DNA from: an uncultured Ruficoccus sp.
Lineage (GTDB): Bacteria > Verrucomicrobiota > Verrucomicrobiia > Opitutales > Cerasicoccaceae
Length of the DNA stretch: 64,000 nucleotides
Direction: 5' to 3'
NCBI GenBank assembly: GCA_965140785.1
Contig: OZ223514.1
Coordinates: 180,289 to 244,288 of the forward strand
Position numbers: made by a program. Below are positions 42,001 to 48,000 of this stretch, piece after piece. Numbering within the stretch: position 1 is the stretch's first letter; each line of letters starts with the position of its first letter.

Positions 42001-45000
42001 CATGTGTCAACCGCTCCACCGAAAGCCGGGTATCGGGCGTCTACGAAGACCATGATTTAATTGGTGCTGCCTGTATCGATCTTGTCTCCGCCAAATTGCA
42101 ACATAATGATTTCGGGCTGCCAGAGCGCCCCCATCTCCTATTGATCGAAGGACGCTGGGGTGATGGGGAAACTCTTCACCATGAAAAGGGCTGCCTCAGC
42201 CCTACGACCTGATTCGCTTTCACAGAGGGATGATCGCACCAATCGTACTGGTCAAACATGGTCAATTTACCGAACCTAGCAGGATCGAAAATCCGAGGCC
42301 CATCCACCGCCTAGAGGCTCCCAAGCAGCGCAACCGACGCCACGAGAACGCCCAGATCAAGCGCGGTGGGGTACCCAAGCGCATCGCCCGAAACTGCCTC
42401 GATATGAAGCAAACGTAAACAGCACGGAGCCGTCACGGGATGCCTCCGAGCTGACCCCACTCAGTTGACTCCGGTCTGCGCGTCGAGCAACTGGTGCAGC
42501 TTCTCCGTTCTCCCGGGCAGGAGGTTTAGGTTGCCTTTGAGGGATTCGGTGAAGGCGTTCTGGAGGGACCAGAGGGTGCGGGGGGTGAAGCAGGCGTGGG
42601 TGGGTTGGCGCCACTCGTGGAGGACTTTGGGGATGTGCTGGTTGGAGCAGACACCCTTGTCCACGGCGCGGATGATGAGGTCGTGGGCGGTGGGGTCGCG
42701 GAGCGGAGTGCGTTTGTAGCGCTCGATGCGGCGGTCTTGTTCATCGAAGCGGGAGACGAGGCGTTGGACGGCTTGATGGGCCAGAGCGCCGAGGTCGCGA
42801 TTAGGCCCGAGGGGGCAGGTCAATAATTTAAATGTTGATTGTTGTCTGACTTGTGTGGTTATTCTAAATTATTGACACGACCTCTTCGGCTCACAGCAAA
42901 ACTCTGTAGTGAAAAACAACTCAAGTATTCTCCGTAAAAAAATAAACAAAATTGGAAGAGCTAATATGCAGAATGAAATAGCAGCCAAGACATCCAGTGT
43001 CATTAAGGCTGTAGATAAAGCTGTAAATGATAGTAATGATTGACCTCAGAAATTCCACTAATGTACCGTAAATATGGATGCTATTAATCACATCAAACAT
43101 CTCCATGATGGTCGGCTTAGGGAAATATATGAGGGGGATGCGATCTCATTTATTAATAATATTTCAAGTGTTAACGTAAATGGAGAATATGACCTAGATG
43201 ACTATAGGGAATGTGCATTTGGAGAATATTGGAGGAGGAGGATTTTGAGCCGAAAAACACTTGCTTATGATGATATTAGACATATTATTGAATATCGCCA
43301 TTTGTGGGGTTCATTATCCGTGATTGGTGAGTTTGCTAGGCTTGATTTAATAGCCCCATATTTATTAAACGATTTAATAATTAGCAAGGATGAAGACGTT
43401 TGGTCGTATCGGCAAATATCTGCCCGTAAAATCGTTCATACAGTGAAGGCTTTGATAGAAATTGAAAACCACATGGACTGTTTGACGATCATTAGTGCAA
43501 TAGACCGCCTCATCGAACTTAAGAATGTTGTTTGGGCGATTGAGGAGTTGTTGCCGCTATTACCATACAGTTGCTTGTGTTATCTTTATAACCGACTTAC
43601 AAAAGAAAAAATATTAACTCGTTCTCACCGAGGTCATTTGAATTCTCTTATAAAAAAGGTACTGCAGGAGAAAACCCAGAAGGAGTCAAATCCAGGAGGG
43701 CCATGTCAATAATGTAAATGATGGTTGTTGTCTGACTTGTGTAGTTATTCTGAATTATTGACATGACCCCTTCGCTTGACCCCTTCGCTTTCAATTGACC
43801 CCTTCGCTTTCAATGGGCCAAGGGTAAATATGGGGGGGGCTCCCTACTTTAAATTTAAGTGGTCAGAAGTACGTTTTGAAAACTATATTACTGAGGAGAT
43901 TCCTCGTTCATCGATAAGGCTGCCTTCAGGATTTGATATGTGGAGAGCGATATTTGGTCAGCGAAAAATTAAATAGGTGTAAGCTTTAAATTAGTGTAAT
44001 ATGACAGTTGTTGTTTGGGCTTTACTTTCGTTATTCACGGTCAAGATCATTTGGAATCTTTGCGTGCCCTATATACTTTTAATGCGGTTCCGAAAGGAGC
44101 CTGACAAAGAAACTGGTTGGATTTCCATGAAAATTGTGGTCGAAATTTTTCTTTTGCTGCTGGCTGTGGGTATGTCGGCGCTGAGCACTGGCCAGGCCTT
44201 GGTAAATAAACCGCTAACTGTAGCAAAATGGGGTATTATTGCTATTATATTTACCTATTTACATTTATTTATTGTTTGCGGTATTGGGGGATGGATAATT
44301 AAAGTGTTTTATTCACAAGATAAGAAGGGATAGAGGAAGCGCTCGAAGGGGTCAGAAGCGCTCGAAGGGGTCATGTCAATAATTTAAATATTGATTAGCC
44401 CCTGTGTTTGTGCTGAGGTGTGCGTATGGCAAGGGCTGTTCGCTTTCAGTTTCCGGGTGCGATTTACCATGTGCTCAATCGTGGGAACTACCGTAAGGAT
44501 TTGTTTACGGCGGGTGAGAGCGGGGCATGGTTTGTGCGGGCGCTGCAGGAGGCCAGTGAGCAGTGTGGCTGGCGTGTCCATGCCTACGTGGTGATGAGTA
44601 ACCACTATCACCTGGTGGTGGAGACGCCGGAGCCGAACCTGGTCGATGGGATGCATTGGCTGCAAACGACGTTTGCGAGCCGCTTCAATCGCTCGATGGG
44701 CGAGCGCGGGCATGTGTTTCAAGGCTGCTACAAGGCGCTGCTGGTGGCACCGGGTCCTCACTTTACGGGGGTGGTCAATTATGTGCATCTCAACCCCGTA
44801 CGCGCGGGCCTATGCACGCTGGAGGATTTGAGGAGCTATGGCTTGGGCAGCTATGGCCACTTTTTTCGCAAACATCGTCCCGACTGGCTGGTGCGCGCGG
44901 AATTCCTCGGCCAACTGCACCTGCCCGACAGCCTGAAAGGGATGAACACTTACGCAAAAATGCTAGCATTGGCCGATGAGCAAGACCCCGAAAAACGGGC

Positions 45001-48000
45001 GTCGCTGAGTCGCGAATATTGCCGGGGCTGGCTGATCGGTGACAAGGCCTACCGCGAGCAAGTCCTGGAGCGCATGAACAAGCATGAGTTGCGGGGGAGC
45101 CACTGCGGTGACGATGTCCGCAACCTCAACGAGTTTCGTTGGGAACAGGCGCTGGCAGAACAACTCAAGCAGCACGAAAAATCGTCAGAAGACATTGCCC
45201 GCGCCCCCAAGGCCGCCGATTGGAAAATCGCAATCGCCCGGCACATGCGCACCCACACCCGCGCCACCAATCCCTGGCTGGCAAAAAAGCTCTCCATGGG
45301 CCACCCCTCACGCGTCAGCAACTTGATATACAATCGCGACATTTAAATTATTGACATGACCCCTTCGGCTGATTCGAACTAATTCAAGAATAGATATAGA
45401 TATAACCTAATAATAATAATGGATTATTTAATCGCTATAAATAGGATATTTTTTTCTTTGACGGTTGTGTATTGGTATAATGTTATTATTGATTTTATTG
45501 ATTTTTTCGTAAAATACAATATTGGCCATTGTATATTGCTTGCTGATAATTCGTCTGTATTTTGGCATTCTTACTTTTGGTTGTGCTTTGGGAGTAATTG
45601 TATATTATCGACATTTATTTTTTTAAAATTAAAAAAACACTACTTTATTTTTATTTTTTTATGCGTACCGTATAGTTGGCGATAGTTGCGACGCCAGGGG
45701 CAGAAGATGGGGTCGAGACAATAGCTTAAATGTTAGTTGTTTCTGTGTTTGAGTGCTGTTGAGGAGATTTCCTCCTTCATGTTCTCCCAGCTAAAAAGAA
45801 GCCGTCCATGAGAGACCGGCTTCTTTTTAATCATCCCCACCGGGTGCGACGAACCTGAAGGGGTCGGGTCAATAATTTAAATGTTGATTACTGTTTGACT
45901 TGTGTAGTTGTTCTAAATTATTGACATGACCCCTTCGGCTTTGCACAATTAACGTACATTATGTGATGAATACTAAAACTAGCCAAGTTGATGATCTTAA
46001 AATCTTTTTAGCAGGAGTGCGATAGTATGAAAGTTGAAGTAATTGAAAATAACTTTAGCGGCTGTCCTCCAGAATTGAAAACGTCTGGGTTTACGGCTGA
46101 AACTTTAGTTGATTTAAGCATCGGTGAGGAGCTTAATGTGTATGGTATGTCAGTGTTTTATGGCGTAGTTTTCGTTCTAATTAAAGATCATAGTGGCATC
46201 TATTCTTGGATGCCGAATTGGCTTTTTAAAGTGTTGGATGGTCGGTTCCCTAAGGATTGGGTATCAAACTTCTTTCATGATAACCCAAGTTGTATCATTG
46301 GGCCGGAGATAATTGCCTCTGACCTTGAAAGATATAGTCGATTTATTGAGCAAGACCCTGACCTTGTTACGAAGATGAACCTGTGGGTTGACTCAATGGA
46401 GTCGGGGTAACCCCATTGGGGGTCACTAAAGGGGTCATGTCAATAATTTAAGTGTTGGTTGTTTCTATGTTTCGCTAAATTTGCATCAGCCACGACCTTG
46501 CAGCTATAAAGAAGCCGGCCATGAGAGGCCGGCTTCTTTTTTATCATCCCCCCCGGTTAAGACCGAGGAGCGGAGTTGCGAGAGTCCTCCGGGCTGAGCC
46601 TTCTCAGTTGAGCCCGGCCTGGGCGTCGAGCAGTTGGTGGAGGCGCTCGGTTCTCCCCGGCAGGAGGTTGAGGTTGCCTTTGAGGGCTTCGGTGAAGGCG
46701 TTCTGGAGGGACCAGAGGGTGCGGGGTTGGAAGCAGGCGTGAGCCGGGTGGCGCCACTCGTGGAGGACTTTGGGGATGTGCTGGTTGGAGCACACGCCTT
46801 TGTCCACGCTGTGGATGATGAGGTCGTGGGCGGTGGTGTCTCGGAGCGGACTGCGCTTGTAATGTTCGATGCGGTGATCTTGTTCATCGAAGCGGGAGAC
46901 GAGGCGTTGGACGGCTTGATGAGCCAGTTCGCCGAGGTCGCGCAGGATGAACCGGGTGTGTTTGCGGGCCAGCTTGATTTCTCCGGTGAAGGCGAGGTTG
47001 CTGCACACCAAGACCTGGGTGCTGGCGACGATGCCAGCGGGGAAGGTCTTGTCGTGGGAGTTGCGGATGCCGACGACCCAGCGGTAATCCCGGGCGGTGT
47101 CGCCTGCGCCGATTTCCAACAAGCCGAAGAAGCGGGTGGCTTCGCGGTTGAGGGCGTAGGCGGAGTTGACGATGGGGAGACCCGCGTTCGAGCAGGGCGA
47201 CCTCGACCGCGTTGAGCACGGTGAGGTGCGGGACGGGTTGCCACGTGCGGGTGGAAGGAGGCGTCGGGGCCTCCGCGATCCGGCTGCGGCTGACGGCGCG
47301 ATCGCCGCAATGCAGCAGGAGGTTGCACCGGTTGGGTTTGGCCTCCAGCACGATTGCCATAGAGGGCCTCCTTTCTTTGTGACCTGCGAAAGCAAAAAGG
47401 CCCGGATTCAGGTCGTAATCCGGGCCCATAAGACAGCGAAAACGCTCGCTTCTCAAGAATATTTAACGCGCGGGAGGGCTGTGTTGCGGCGACAGGTGCC
47501 CGGGGATATGTCTTTCAGGTTACGTGACCGCTATCCCAAAAAGTGAAAACAGGAAAAGTGGCGTAAGATAATTGTAAAATCACCTCGCATGCCGCTTTTT
47601 TCCTAGATTTTAACATGGCGGGAAACCGCCTAAATATGTCCGGTTTTGAAATAGATCTGTCCGTATTCGGACAGATACGTCGATTTTACACTAGGGTCAT
47701 TTATTTACGACATGATAGGTCCCTAGCAACCGTTAGGTCCCGGAGCTCCGGAATATCCTCCTTGTGGCCGTAGGCCTCGGGGTCGTTTACTTGAATCGCC
47801 CTAAGTCCTTATAGATACGGCCATTTCGGCTGATTTAAACTGGTGGAGCCGATCGGGATCGAACCGACGACCTCGTCATTGCGAACGACGCGCTCTTCCA
47901 ACTGAGCTACGGCCCCACGCTTGAAAAGAGTACCTATGAGCGGTGTCGGGGTGTAGGTCAAGGCAAAGCAGCCGGCAAGATGAGGGGAAAATGTGAGGGG

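Follow-up and report, generated by a model that had tools for sequence, protein, structure and literature searches.

Beside a tRNA-Ala gene of an uncultured Ruficoccus sp., short low-GC genes lie in the same orientation among copies of a palindromic repeat and a Y1 transposase gene, which raises the question of whether the repeat and its enzyme move these genes or mark the places where they were joined by other means. The initial annotation had read the repeat as a REPIN-like element whose copies delimit inserted one-gene cassettes. The window analysed is a 64,000-nt stretch of this genome, and all feature coordinates are positions within it.

Layout of the array

The whole array is bracketed by a direct repeat (about 375 nt, 86% identity) of the 3' part of a DUF932-like gene. 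The full-length gene (46604..47395, minus strand, 263 aa) adjoins the tRNA-Ala gene (47841-47916, minus strand), and a shortened 3' copy (42461..42823, minus strand, 120 aa; DUF932 at 17.8 bits, below the cut-off) lies at the other end, where 42436-42735 directly repeats 46579-46878 at 86% identity, with homology extending to about 42810. The first palindromic doublet, D1 (42798..42897, plus strand), adjoins the breakpoint of the shortened copy and consists of an L arm (42811-42833), a 34-nt loop and an R arm, with a predicted hairpin of -11.9 kcal/mol (z -2.2). It is followed by cargo ORF A (43074..43712, plus strand, 212 aa, about 36% G+C), which has neither a Pfam match nor a word-index homologue and whose stop codon falls within the L arm of doublet D2 (43684..43783, plus strand). 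The outer terminus of D2, TGACCCCTTCGCT, is then reiterated in tandem (43771-43808), and a 66-aa ORF of no family (43776..43976, plus strand) starts within this reiterated R-arm terminus; judging from its position, it may be a toxin-tip remnant.

Cargo ORF B (44001..44333, plus strand, 110 aa) has a hydrophobic, membrane-like sequence and no family match. Immediately downstream (44336..44389, plus strand), two tandem 19-nt copies of GAAGCGCTCGAAGGGGTCA precede the L arm of the transposase element (44367-44389), and the gene for a Y1 (HUH) transposase of the TIRYT type (44426..45346, plus strand, 306 aa, alternative start at 44420) ends in an inverted R arm (45341..45363, minus strand) that overlaps its stop codon. 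A stretch of 26-31% G+C (45400..45700), containing an 88-aa ORF of doubtful reality, leads to a block (45701..45850, plus strand) in which a degenerate L arm is joined by a remnant similar to the 5' leader of the transposase and by a terminator hairpin (45793-45829); this block is an older copy of 46413-46563. Next come doublet D3 (45846..45945, plus strand; -19.2 kcal/mol, z -6.6), whose R arm provides a predicted -35 box, TTGACA, 17 nt before CACAAT, and cargo ORF C (46027..46410, plus strand, 127 aa, unnamed family). In the final unit (46425..46563, plus strand), an L arm standing alone (46431-46453) occurs together with a remnant similar to the leader and with the DUF932 gene terminator (46505-46541). 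D3 and ORF C are bracketed by a block of ~150 nt (45691-45850 / 46413-46563), of which 63 nt align at 87%. No recombinase ORF was found in 41000-48000 and no integrase within the window array; integrase-like genes stand beside some arrays of one other genome, G001, only.

A TIRtron and its miniatures

The transposase matches Pfam Y1_Tnp (36.9 bits, cut-off 23), and, as stated in the initial annotation, it stays below the cut-off of the curated RAYT model REP_Tyr_transpos (NF047646; 64.3 bits against 80). Membership of IS200/IS605 was rejected on account of the TnpA equivalog score (NF033573; 18.6 bits against 55) and the presence of 23-27-nt inverted ends. All 20 aligned relatives match both Y1_Tnp and REP_Tyr_transpos and share an invariant HUH motif (HYH) and tyrosine motif (YxHLNP), and the predicted model has its best PDB match in the RAYT-REP complex 4er8 (E 2.3e-7), with further matches to ISDra2 and IS608 TnpA. 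The closest published class is that of the TIRYT transposases of TIRtrons (Di Nocera et al., 2013; PMC3733652), TnpAY1 subclass 2.1 (Quentin et al., 2018; PMC6006769). In the available text of these papers, TIRYTs are RAYT-related Y1 HUH enzymes of about twice RAYT length with a C-terminal helical or HTH-like part (a Bac_DnaA_C / HTH_23 / HTH_28-like domain), while TIRs that start with GGGGWSAS replace the REP hairpins and also occur as moderately abundant dimers and clusters. The arms in the window, GGGGTCA[T/G] at 44367 and 45363, fit this consensus, and TIRs starting with (G)GGGTCAG or similar are present at 16 of 27 relatives' loci. The element is thus a TIRtron, with a TIRYT Y1 transposase of TnpAY1 subclass 2.1 between GGGGWSAS-type terminal inverted repeats; enzyme and arms are of a kind already published, though unstudied.

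Class membership would also account for a C-terminal extension of 175 aa that had been called unexplained, given the HTH extension of TIRYTs (PMC3733652, PMC6006769). The alignment and model contain a conserved C-terminal block, WK..A..LR....GA...W.A..L.MG, with predicted helices; HTH_23 itself is matched weakly in one of 20 members (E 0.019), and the fold search is dominated by the N-terminal domain. In the window transposase, a nearly invariant Arg101 (Arg in 19 of 20 relatives) is replaced by Cys, and this enzyme copy may therefore be impaired. The genome contains two intact transposase genes plus remnants. The second copy (C10:480074-481079) has 99% identity over 1006 nt, as previously noted, with protein differences at 2 of 308 residues, and abuts a shortened Phage_integrase gene.

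The 23-nt arm, GGGGTCATGTCAATAATTTAAAT, occurs eight times in the window at up to three mismatches (0 in 100 shuffles) and 29 times in the genome at up to four. Its inverted placement around the window transposase gene was confirmed, and an nhmmer profile built on nine copies recovered the reported doublets: 10 of full length, two of 65-72 nt and eight half-sites. Arms do not fold by themselves (isolated right end of the element, z +0.86), and no GTAG-tagged REP hairpin was found within a single arm. The doublets are internally deleted miniatures of the transposase element: in the genome G003, doublets of 180 nt consist of its first 112 nt and last 72 nt, in two distinct copies with identical breakpoints, and the size class differs from species to species. 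The 80-nt doublets of the present genome are miniatures in which both ends are retained and the gene is lost, and they therefore form long hairpins when the DNA is single-stranded; presumably they are copied in trans by the enzyme, in the manner proposed for RAYTs and REPINs. With differences of 1-23% between doublets and a mean identity of 87%, the majority do not represent recent insertions.

The view of a REPIN-like RAYT element therefore holds for the Y1 HUH enzyme and its hairpin-forming doublets, but not for the class. As in RAYT/REPIN systems (in the available text of PMC3116915 and PMC3337134), a non-autonomous hairpin doublet derives from the inverted flanks of a Y1 gene, and the predicted fold matches that of the E. 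coli RAYT (4er8). REPINs, however, reach hundreds of copies per genome (10.1101/119743, available text), compared to 12 doublets here (10 full and two partial), and RAYT/REPIN membership was rejected in view of the two intact gene copies, the non-self-folding arms, the few doublets and the model score. TIRtrons share the Y1 HUH core, the GGGGWSAS-type TIRs around the gene and the TIR dimers, but here the dimers lie at joints of toxin/immunity modules, a cargo and context not described in the available parts of PMC3733652 and PMC6006769; two intact gene copies with remnants and the reiterated outer terminus are further differences.

The claim that hardly any other species carries the family was not borne out: at up to three mismatches, the arm is present in eight of 301 genomes of the order (27 copies in the present genome, G000; 10 in G003, five each in G002 and G008, four in G001, two in G007 and one each in G142 and G146) and in 27 metagenome stretches. 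The arm family spans one genus, two further genera and one unrelated organism of 68% G+C, in which it forms perfect palindromes of 38-71 nt at the doublet loci listed.

Toxin-related cargo at the joints

The genome has 59% G+C, and at 17 of 20 arm units a 300-nt flank falls below 45% G+C (6.4% of random sites), which bears out the reported proximity of doublets to low-GC genes. The cargo families HEPN and DUF4274 were already known; arm-bracketed genes also match Imm30 (53.9 bits), DUF3997 and Sel1, so the cargo is not anonymous, while those of relatives match Imm22, DUF2750 and, weakly, Imm74. At locus C39, a 175-aa ORF starts in the R arm and matches, over ~46% of its length and at 63-77% identity, proteins that carry Rhs, Hcp, PAAR-like or haemagglutinin-repeat families, which adds a toxin tip shared with Rhs, Hcp and PAAR effectors to the cargo. 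The sole large Rhs gene of the genome (2210-aa frame, RHS_repeat) coincides with the C10 doublet locus C10a, and Rhs proteins are encoded directly upstream of arms in G003, G007, G008 and L055. Much of the cargo thus comes from polymorphic toxin systems of the Rhs type, either as immunity genes or as remnants of toxin tips. Nineteen ORFs from 12 arm-less low-GC islands gave no immunity or Rhs match; these islands contain defence genes (TIR-STAND, restriction-modification, AbiEii-like) or genes for phage Rep proteins instead.

Within its own genus and in two sister genera, the element is almost confined to polymorphic-toxin DNA, where it lies behind the immunity gene of an Rhs toxin or between orphan immunity genes and toxin-tip remnants. 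This association is specific to the lineage: the 55 neighbouring ORFs at 21 loci of relatives with 36-44% identity gave no immunity or Rhs match and include genes for ribonucleotide reductase, an ammonium transporter and glycosidases. The window cargo, ORFs A, B and C, has no named family (Pfam; relatives and fold of ORF C). ORF C has 274 relatives, one of which also bears an RHS repeat, and a predicted fold of an SH3-like barrel plus helices (pLDDT 96.5). Because the three cargo genes lack an assigned function, the reading of the window array as immunity cargo rests on analogy and on this one relative.

The classical model of Rhs tip displacement is not known to use homology outside the rhs core. 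Literature searches did not find a palindromic transposon end conserved at each downstream joint of Rhs modules. The arrays otherwise resemble Rhs orphan modules, in which a GC-rich Rhs core that ends in DPxGL is followed by a tip and an immunity gene of low G+C and, further downstream, by remnants of displaced tips together with the immunity genes that belong to them (PMC3482391). Imm30, the RHS_repeat of C10a and the shared toxin tip place the genome as a whole among those with orphan tips and polyimmunity, and Imm30 is listed in heterogeneous polyimmunity loci (Zhang et al., 2012; PMC3482391, available text).

Cargo turns over between conserved arms: the C12 locus of G000 and the C11 locus of G002 share their R and L arms and their site, just past the stop codon of one gene, yet enclose different cargo. 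Each of the 18 cargo ORFs is present in one copy and has no counterpart at the relatives' loci. The arm is under constraint, its identity staying at 23/23 or 22/23 both in G002, with transposase DNA at 85% identity, and where the protein is only 53-55% identical. The notion of one-gene cassettes delimited by repeats is sound as far as doublets flank low-GC genes, but junctions cut into genes, which argues against tidy, integron-like cassettes; the empty sites that had been reported were not found in clean form at the two loci tested, C12 and C48.

Accounts of the assembly

We give a probability of about 0.5 to an island of stacked toxin/immunity modules with TIRtron arms as downstream joints, joined mainly by recombination. 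Foreign low-GC modules of one or two genes would have been stacked head to tail beside tRNA-Ala, each joint bearing a piece of one resident mobile element, a TIRtron whose TIRYT-class Y1/HUH transposase lies between 23-27-nt inverted ends starting with GGGGTCA. The arms would travel at the downstream end of toxin-tip/immunity modules and then act as fixed joints where successive modules are added or swapped, mainly by recombination from one arm copy to another or through other flanks in common, whereby the earlier toxin would be severed and its immunity gene retained. In favour stand the recombination-type flanks around the array and around D3 plus ORF C, the cargo turnover and the orientation that 11 of 12 doublets share with the cargo. 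Against it, neither excision products nor circles nor clean empty sites were seen, and the arms alone are short for homologous recombination.

It is possible, though we consider it improbable, that the arms landed passively, in arrays built by toxin-tip displacement and island accretion, with miniatures inserted later into a few permissive spots such as AT-rich, dispensable spacers behind immunity genes. The 68%-GC organism, where doublet flanks of 0.52-0.75 G+C show no tie to low-GC DNA, illustrates such REPIN-like behaviour, and the AT-rich arm interiors, the small copy number and the greatest likeness of doublets within a locus (97% and 99%), as local hopping would give, are consistent with it. 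However, arms are absent both from the five largest low-GC islands, which together amount to about half of the low-GC DNA, and from 12 other mid-size ones, and 11 of 12 doublets share the orientation of the cargo. Moreover, at C10a and C39 the doublet lies exactly where the toxin gene loses its 5' part, and no matching 5' part is present upstream, which argues against simple insertion into an intact gene.

That the Y1 enzyme itself captures and moves cargo, as an HUH-based counterpart of the integron, appears unlikely. The enzyme would cleave single-stranded DNA at the GGGGTCA terminus and connect the arm-ended segment to new DNA, with one-ended or read-through events taking along varying lengths of adjacent sequence. 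Such events would suit the arms, which are far better conserved than the enzyme, and the five of five cases (C43, C12, G002:C83, G003:C4, L055) in which cargo lies upstream of an adjoining transposase gene or remnant in the same orientation, as well as the ragged cargo ends: ORFs extend into the L arm and use its TAA as their stop codon (e.g., ORF A), and toxin remnants start at the R-arm ATG in C10a, C39 and G003:C9. The outer terminus, (A)AGGGGTCA, is reiterated outside the arms every ~10-20 nt, 29 outer flanks of 60 nt containing 14 GGG[TG]C motifs where about 4.4 are expected; the reiteration recurs in G002 and the 68%-GC organism, and in G008 AAGGG(G)TCAG stands at three module joints, two of which lack the remainder of the arm. 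On the other hand, no cargo was found twice or shared between arm-bearing genomes, neither a circle nor a junction read came to light, the 68%-GC organism has the same arm family without cargo, and distant relatives occur singly among housekeeping genes; TIRYT biochemistry is not established in the available text of PMC3733652 and PMC6006769.

Integron cassettes are single, promoter-less, co-oriented genes of foreign composition, each with an imperfect palindrome behind it that folds when single-stranded, and integrons have an IntI integrase, an attI site and attC sites with RYYYAAC/GTTRRRY cores. The present arrays share these traits of genes and palindromes, but no IntI gene stands beside the arrays examined, the repeat shows no GTTRRRY core by eye (GTTGATT fails at the sixth base) and unit boundaries cut into coding sequence. 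The rAID-1 arrays of Bacteroidales, recombinase-associated orphan-immunity arrays with a XerD-like tyrosine recombinase at the 5' end, likewise have low-GC genes in a common orientation, with many orphan immunity genes among them, and repetitive spacers 'reminiscent of integrons' (Ross et al., bioRxiv 10.1101/471110, available text); here, by contrast, a Y1 HUH transposase accompanies short arrays (1-4 units) that include toxin-tip remnants, and rAID-1 membership was rejected for want of a recombinase ORF in 41000-48000. That the arms are tyrosine recombinase sites in the style of integrons, rAID-1 or dif modules, with the Y1 gene a passenger, is highly improbable: although the uninterrupted form of the repeat, 38 bp in the 68%-GC organism, is perfectly palindromic about a TTTAAA centre, both G001 arrays adjoin a divergent integrase-like gene and the second G000 transposase copy abuts an integrase remnant, GGGTCAG TIRs flank the Y1 gene itself in diverged lineages, the window array has no integrase, the G001 integrase has its G000 orthologue (82%) on C13, a contig without arms, and integrases at different loci are unrelated or only 25% identical. 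If the island is indeed one of modules joined at TIRtron arms, these repeats may mark how bacteria stack immunity genes against contact toxins together with broken toxin tips.

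The array and its transposase element

The array occupies a low-GC patch at 42.4-47.4 kb of the window (26-45% G+C vs. 59% for the genome), with a LacI-type regulator gene on one side and a tRNA-Ala on the other. Its recurrent unit is a 23-nt arm, which forms the inverted left (L) and right (R) ends of a Y1 transposase element and also occurs in doublets, i.e., an L arm, a loop and an R arm. From left to right, a DUF932 gene truncated to its 3' part is followed by doublet D1, ORF A (212 aa), doublet D2, a 66-aa ORF with the hydrophobic ORF B (110 aa), an L arm, the gene of the 306-aa Y1 transposase and its R arm, a spacer of 26-31% G+C, a degenerate L arm and its terminator, doublet D3 ahead of ORF C (127 aa), a solo L arm, again accompanied by a terminator, and the full DUF932 gene. 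The arm is found eight times in the window (never in shuffled sequence) and 29 times in the genome, where the matches of a profile search, spread over eight loci on five contigs, comprise 10 full doublets, 2 shorter copies and 8 half-sites. On contig C10, a second copy of the transposase gene is 99% identical to that of the window over 1006 nt, and the initial annotation had thus described the arms, the doublets and both transposase copies accurately.

Two sets of direct repeats frame the array: the 3' part of DUF932 is duplicated on either side of the whole (86% identity over ~375 nt, 42436-42810 and 46579-46953), and D3 with ORF C is enclosed by two copies of a ~150-nt block of arm plus terminator. 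Such repeats would be expected if circles integrate by homologous recombination. DUF932 genes adjoin arrays at C10:630331-631101 as well, and in the related genome G003 a DUF932 gene of ~80% DNA identity lies 350 nt from three contig ends. Truncated copies at contig C48 and at 46431 had raised the possibility of a fixed crossover within the R arm after TTCTAAAT. It was rejected: on our reading, the "half-sites" at 45701 and 46431 consist of an L arm and a remnant resembling the 5' leader of the transposase gene, and a degenerate R arm is retained at C48a.

The transposase matches the Y1/HUH core (Pfam Y1_Tnp, 36.9 bits), scores 64.3 bits against the RAYT model (cut-off 80), and keeps the HYH and Y..HLNP motifs, which are invariant in an alignment of 20 relatives. 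Its AlphaFold model (pLDDT 84) is closest to 4er8, the E. coli RAYT bound to a REP hairpin. RAYT-like genes with terminal inverted repeats were named "TIRtrons", and their enzymes "TIRYTs", by Di Nocera et al. (2013; PMC3733652), according to whom the repeats have a GGGGWSAS motif in common and sometimes form dimers and clusters; Quentin et al. (2018; PMC6006769) place TIRYTs in TnpAY1 subclass 2.1, with a C-terminal HTH or DnaA-C-like extension. The arms described here start with GGGGTCA[T/G], and terminal repeats starting with (G)GGGTCAG or close variants were found at 16 of 27 loci of Verrucomicrobiota relatives whose enzymes are 36-44% identical. Enzyme and repeat belong, as a new member, to a published but unstudied class. 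Membership of subclass 2.1 would also account for the sub-threshold RAYT score and for the C-terminal 175 aa, both of which had been noted correctly, the latter as "unexplained".

At codon 101 (FQG[R/C]YKA, window 44726-44728) the window copy encodes Cys, and Arg is found in the C10 copy, in the orthologue of the related genome G002 and in 19 of the 20 relatives in the alignment; of the two copies, that of the window may be in decay. The C10 copy adjoins a Phage_integrase gene (32.3 bits; L003 4101-4535) that lacks its 5' part and retains the C-terminal 144 aa. Beyond it lie low-GC genes, among them those of an AbiEii-like ATPase and a DNA methylase.

The doublets are miniatures of the transposase element. 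In G003 they measure 180 nt and join its first 112 nt to its last 72 nt, with identical breakpoints in two distinct copies; the size is ~115 nt in the relative G001 and 80 nt in the genome under study. Since the doublets are 77-99% alike (mean 87%), most of them are old. Folded as single-stranded DNA, D3 reaches -19.2 kcal/mol (z -6.6), D1 and D2 being weaker. As for a role as promoter or terminator, a good -35/-10 pair was found at D3 only, and counts did not exceed those of shuffles. The bracketed unit at C48 is flanked by further short repeats (L001 2547-2814 and 3762-3851), which recur at many sites of the genus with 85-98% identity.

Cargo between the arms

Genes bracketed by arms in the genome match Imm30 (53.9 bits), DUF4274 behind a weak AHH-nuclease fragment, DUF3997, HEPN and Sel1 in Pfam. 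The doublets at C10a, one of the C10 loci, lie directly downstream of the one large Rhs gene of the genome (a frame of 2210 aa): the Rhs core ends in ...DPLGF...NPWTKFDPQGL and is followed by a low-GC tip, a 68-aa membrane ORF, a doublet, a 65-aa remnant beginning at the R-arm ATG, and another membrane ORF, of 105 aa. A 175-aa ORF on contig C39 likewise starts in an R arm, and ~46% of its length matches, at 63-77% identity, proteins in which RHS, Hcp (TssD), PAAR-like or haemagglutinin-repeat families are recognized; such matches are the hallmark of a polymorphic-toxin tip. The C39 unit also contains an insertion sequence with ORFs of 88 and 306 aa (L006 4933-6113), earlier assigned to IS3, which lies behind a 363-aa secreted-looking protein.

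Relatives show a comparable setting. In G003, G007 (with a DUF6973 tip) and G008, the last of which carries three tip-immunity modules, arms stand downstream of the gene presumed to give immunity to an Rhs protein; in G001 and G002 they border genes that match Imm22, DUF2750 and, weakly, Imm74. A 37%-identical relative (locus L055) is situated behind a protein of >3048 aa with RHS repeats and a low-GC gene of 174 aa.

ORF C (46027-46410) belongs to an unnamed family of ~125-135 aa with 274 relatives (E up to 0.001); an RHS repeat precedes the domain in one of these, and a CPCC domain follows it in one. Its very confident model (pLDDT 96.5) is an SH3-like barrel with three C-terminal helices, and none of ORFs A, B and C matched a named family. 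Searches for the function of ORFs A and C gave the query alone (word index), unnamed clusters (Atlas), generic SH3-like matches with Z up to 5.4 (Foldseek/VIA-align), and a meaningful Pfam match in 0 of 60 family members.

An earlier caveat held that AT-rich foreign DNA might simply be a preferred landing place of the repeat. A flank below 45% G+C was found at 17 of 20 arm units, as against 6.4% of random sites. Only 9 of the 199 low-GC islands of the genome contain arms; none is present in the five largest, which make up about half of the low-GC DNA, and the 19 ORFs from twelve mid-size arm-less islands, which contain TIR-STAND, restriction-modification, AbiEii-like, phage Rep, sulfatase and similar genes, gave no Imm or Rhs match. 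The arms thus accompany toxin/immunity DNA rather than AT-rich DNA in general. The distant relatives speak against a general rule, since 0 of 55 neighbour ORFs at 21 loci matched Imm or Rhs families and five loci lie directly downstream of ribonucleotide reductase. A tblastn screen with the Rhs protein against 32 loci of relatives returned nothing at E 1e-6, but was insensitive, as it missed the RHS protein at L055 that Pfam recognizes. As far as we searched, systematic placement of arms at the joints of toxin-tip/immunity modules is undescribed: in the literature outside subscription journals, papers on TIRYTs, on polyimmunity with IS200, and on orphan immunity with a transposase and a repeat did not report the association.

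Joints, turnover and distribution of the arm

Between fixed arms the cargo turns over, and two genomes differ in what they carry at the same site: three genes and a transposase remnant at C12 of the genome under study, and one Imm74-like gene at C11 of G002, both between an R arm 11-23 nt past the stop codon of the same gene and an L arm. When 18 cargo ORFs were compared by tblastn with the genome and with every locus retrieved, only self-matches were obtained, bar one short match of 30 aa, and ORF C and Imm30 were not found in G001, G002, G003, G007 and G008 with the queries used. Doublets are co-oriented with their cargo in 11 of 12 cases, and cargo lies upstream of the transposase gene or its remnant in all five cases where the two adjoin.

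At joints that cut genes, upstream ORFs run into the L arm and stop at its TAA, the in-frame ends reading ...G[S/P][C/G]Q with the stop at TCAATAA (window 43697-43712; L027 7969-7994; C12 35915-35936), and toxin remnants start at the R-arm ATG (MTPS...) with no matching 5' part upstream. The arms thereby supply stops and starts to broken genes, and whatever took the place of the older tip has its downstream end marked by the doublet. Outside many arms, the outer terminus (A)AGGGGTCA and a few flanking bases are reiterated in tandem with a period of ~10-20 nt (window 44336-44373 and 43771-43808; C12 35860-35930; L028 of G002; L085/L088). These reiterations, found in three genomes, G002 and G008 among them, and in one metagenome organism of 68% G+C, and the 14 GGG[TG]C motifs in 29 outer flanks (~4.4 expected) point to repeated action of the enzyme at the terminus.

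Empty sites had been taken to demonstrate insertion, a claim that comparison with relatives at two loci does not bear out: at C48 the gaps carry other repeats, and at C12 those of G001, G003 and G004 hold 362, 1055 and 315 unrelated nt, with no arm scored and a PEP-CTERM gene in the G003 gap, so that neither locus has a clean empty site. Two public runs of one study include the stretch as contigs only, which break at arms, and no RNA data set was listed as containing it. Neither a joint in X2 (42544 to 42828, side 28) nor an odd junction in X1 can be interpreted. No excision product or circle was seen in the C48 and C12 comparisons or in the contigs of these runs.

The family, once considered almost confined to this species, is wider: the arm is present in 8 of 301 genomes of the order (four of five species of the genus, two other genera of the family, and one copy each in two more genomes) and in 27 stretches of a metagenome scan. 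Most of the latter come from the 68%-GC organism (L065-L090), where the arm forms perfect palindromes of 38-71 nt, uninterrupted at 38 nt in L077, L080 and L086, whose GC-rich central tips differ between copies with pairing kept. Since all their flanks have 0.52-0.75 G+C, the tie of the family to low-GC DNA is not intrinsic. Although the transposase of this organism is only 53-55% identical to ours, its arm agrees at 22 of 23 positions; the arm is therefore far more constrained than the gene. In several Opitutaceae MAGs, TIRtrons of 40-43% identity occupy one conserved place directly 3' of the ribonucleotide reductase gene (L042, L043, L046, L052, L058; also L040 and L050) and look like vertically kept, single-copy elements.

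Possible routes of array assembly

The best reading, to which we assign a probability of about 0.5, is that the TIRtron multiplies its own arm pairs, that arms would ride at the downstream end of tip-immunity modules, and that arrays would extend through recombination at arms and other shared flanks. Later, passive landing of miniatures in arrays that already existed is clearly less probable: the toxin remnants at C10a and C39 have no 5' part upstream, which simple insertion into an intact array cannot account for. Direct capture of cargo by the Y1 enzyme is somewhat more doubtful still, and it is very unlikely that the arm is the site of a tyrosine recombinase.

Beyond this preferred reading of arm multiplication and recombination, we tentatively consider that TIRYT transposases can themselves assemble arrays of orphan toxin tips and immunity genes. 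In this unlikely but specific proposal, the enzyme would cut single-stranded DNA at the GGGGTCA terminus and join it again, so that foreign modules ending in arms are added downstream of Rhs genes and at the ends of islands. The arrays described here are best classed as a TIRtron combined with a polyimmunity array, analogous to rAID-1, the recombinase-associated arrays of orphan immunity genes. Integrons and rAID-1 are cassette arrays of tyrosine recombinases, whereas the TIRYT route, if true, would be a third, HUH-based one.

To our knowledge, no function has been assigned to TIRYTs since their naming in 2013. The present arrays join two questions, namely how TIRYT- and RAYT-type Y1 enzymes benefit their hosts, and how orphan immunity genes against contact-dependent toxins build up. 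Because nearly every module joint in this lineage carries the ends of such an enzyme's element, it offers a concrete, testable system, with a small enzyme, a 23-nt site that is near-invariant across hosts with ~55%-identical enzymes, and natural arrays whose cargo differs at a single chromosomal position. Should the enzyme do no more than multiply repeats, a conserved, portable end common to several genera could still ease the exchange of toxin-immunity modules.
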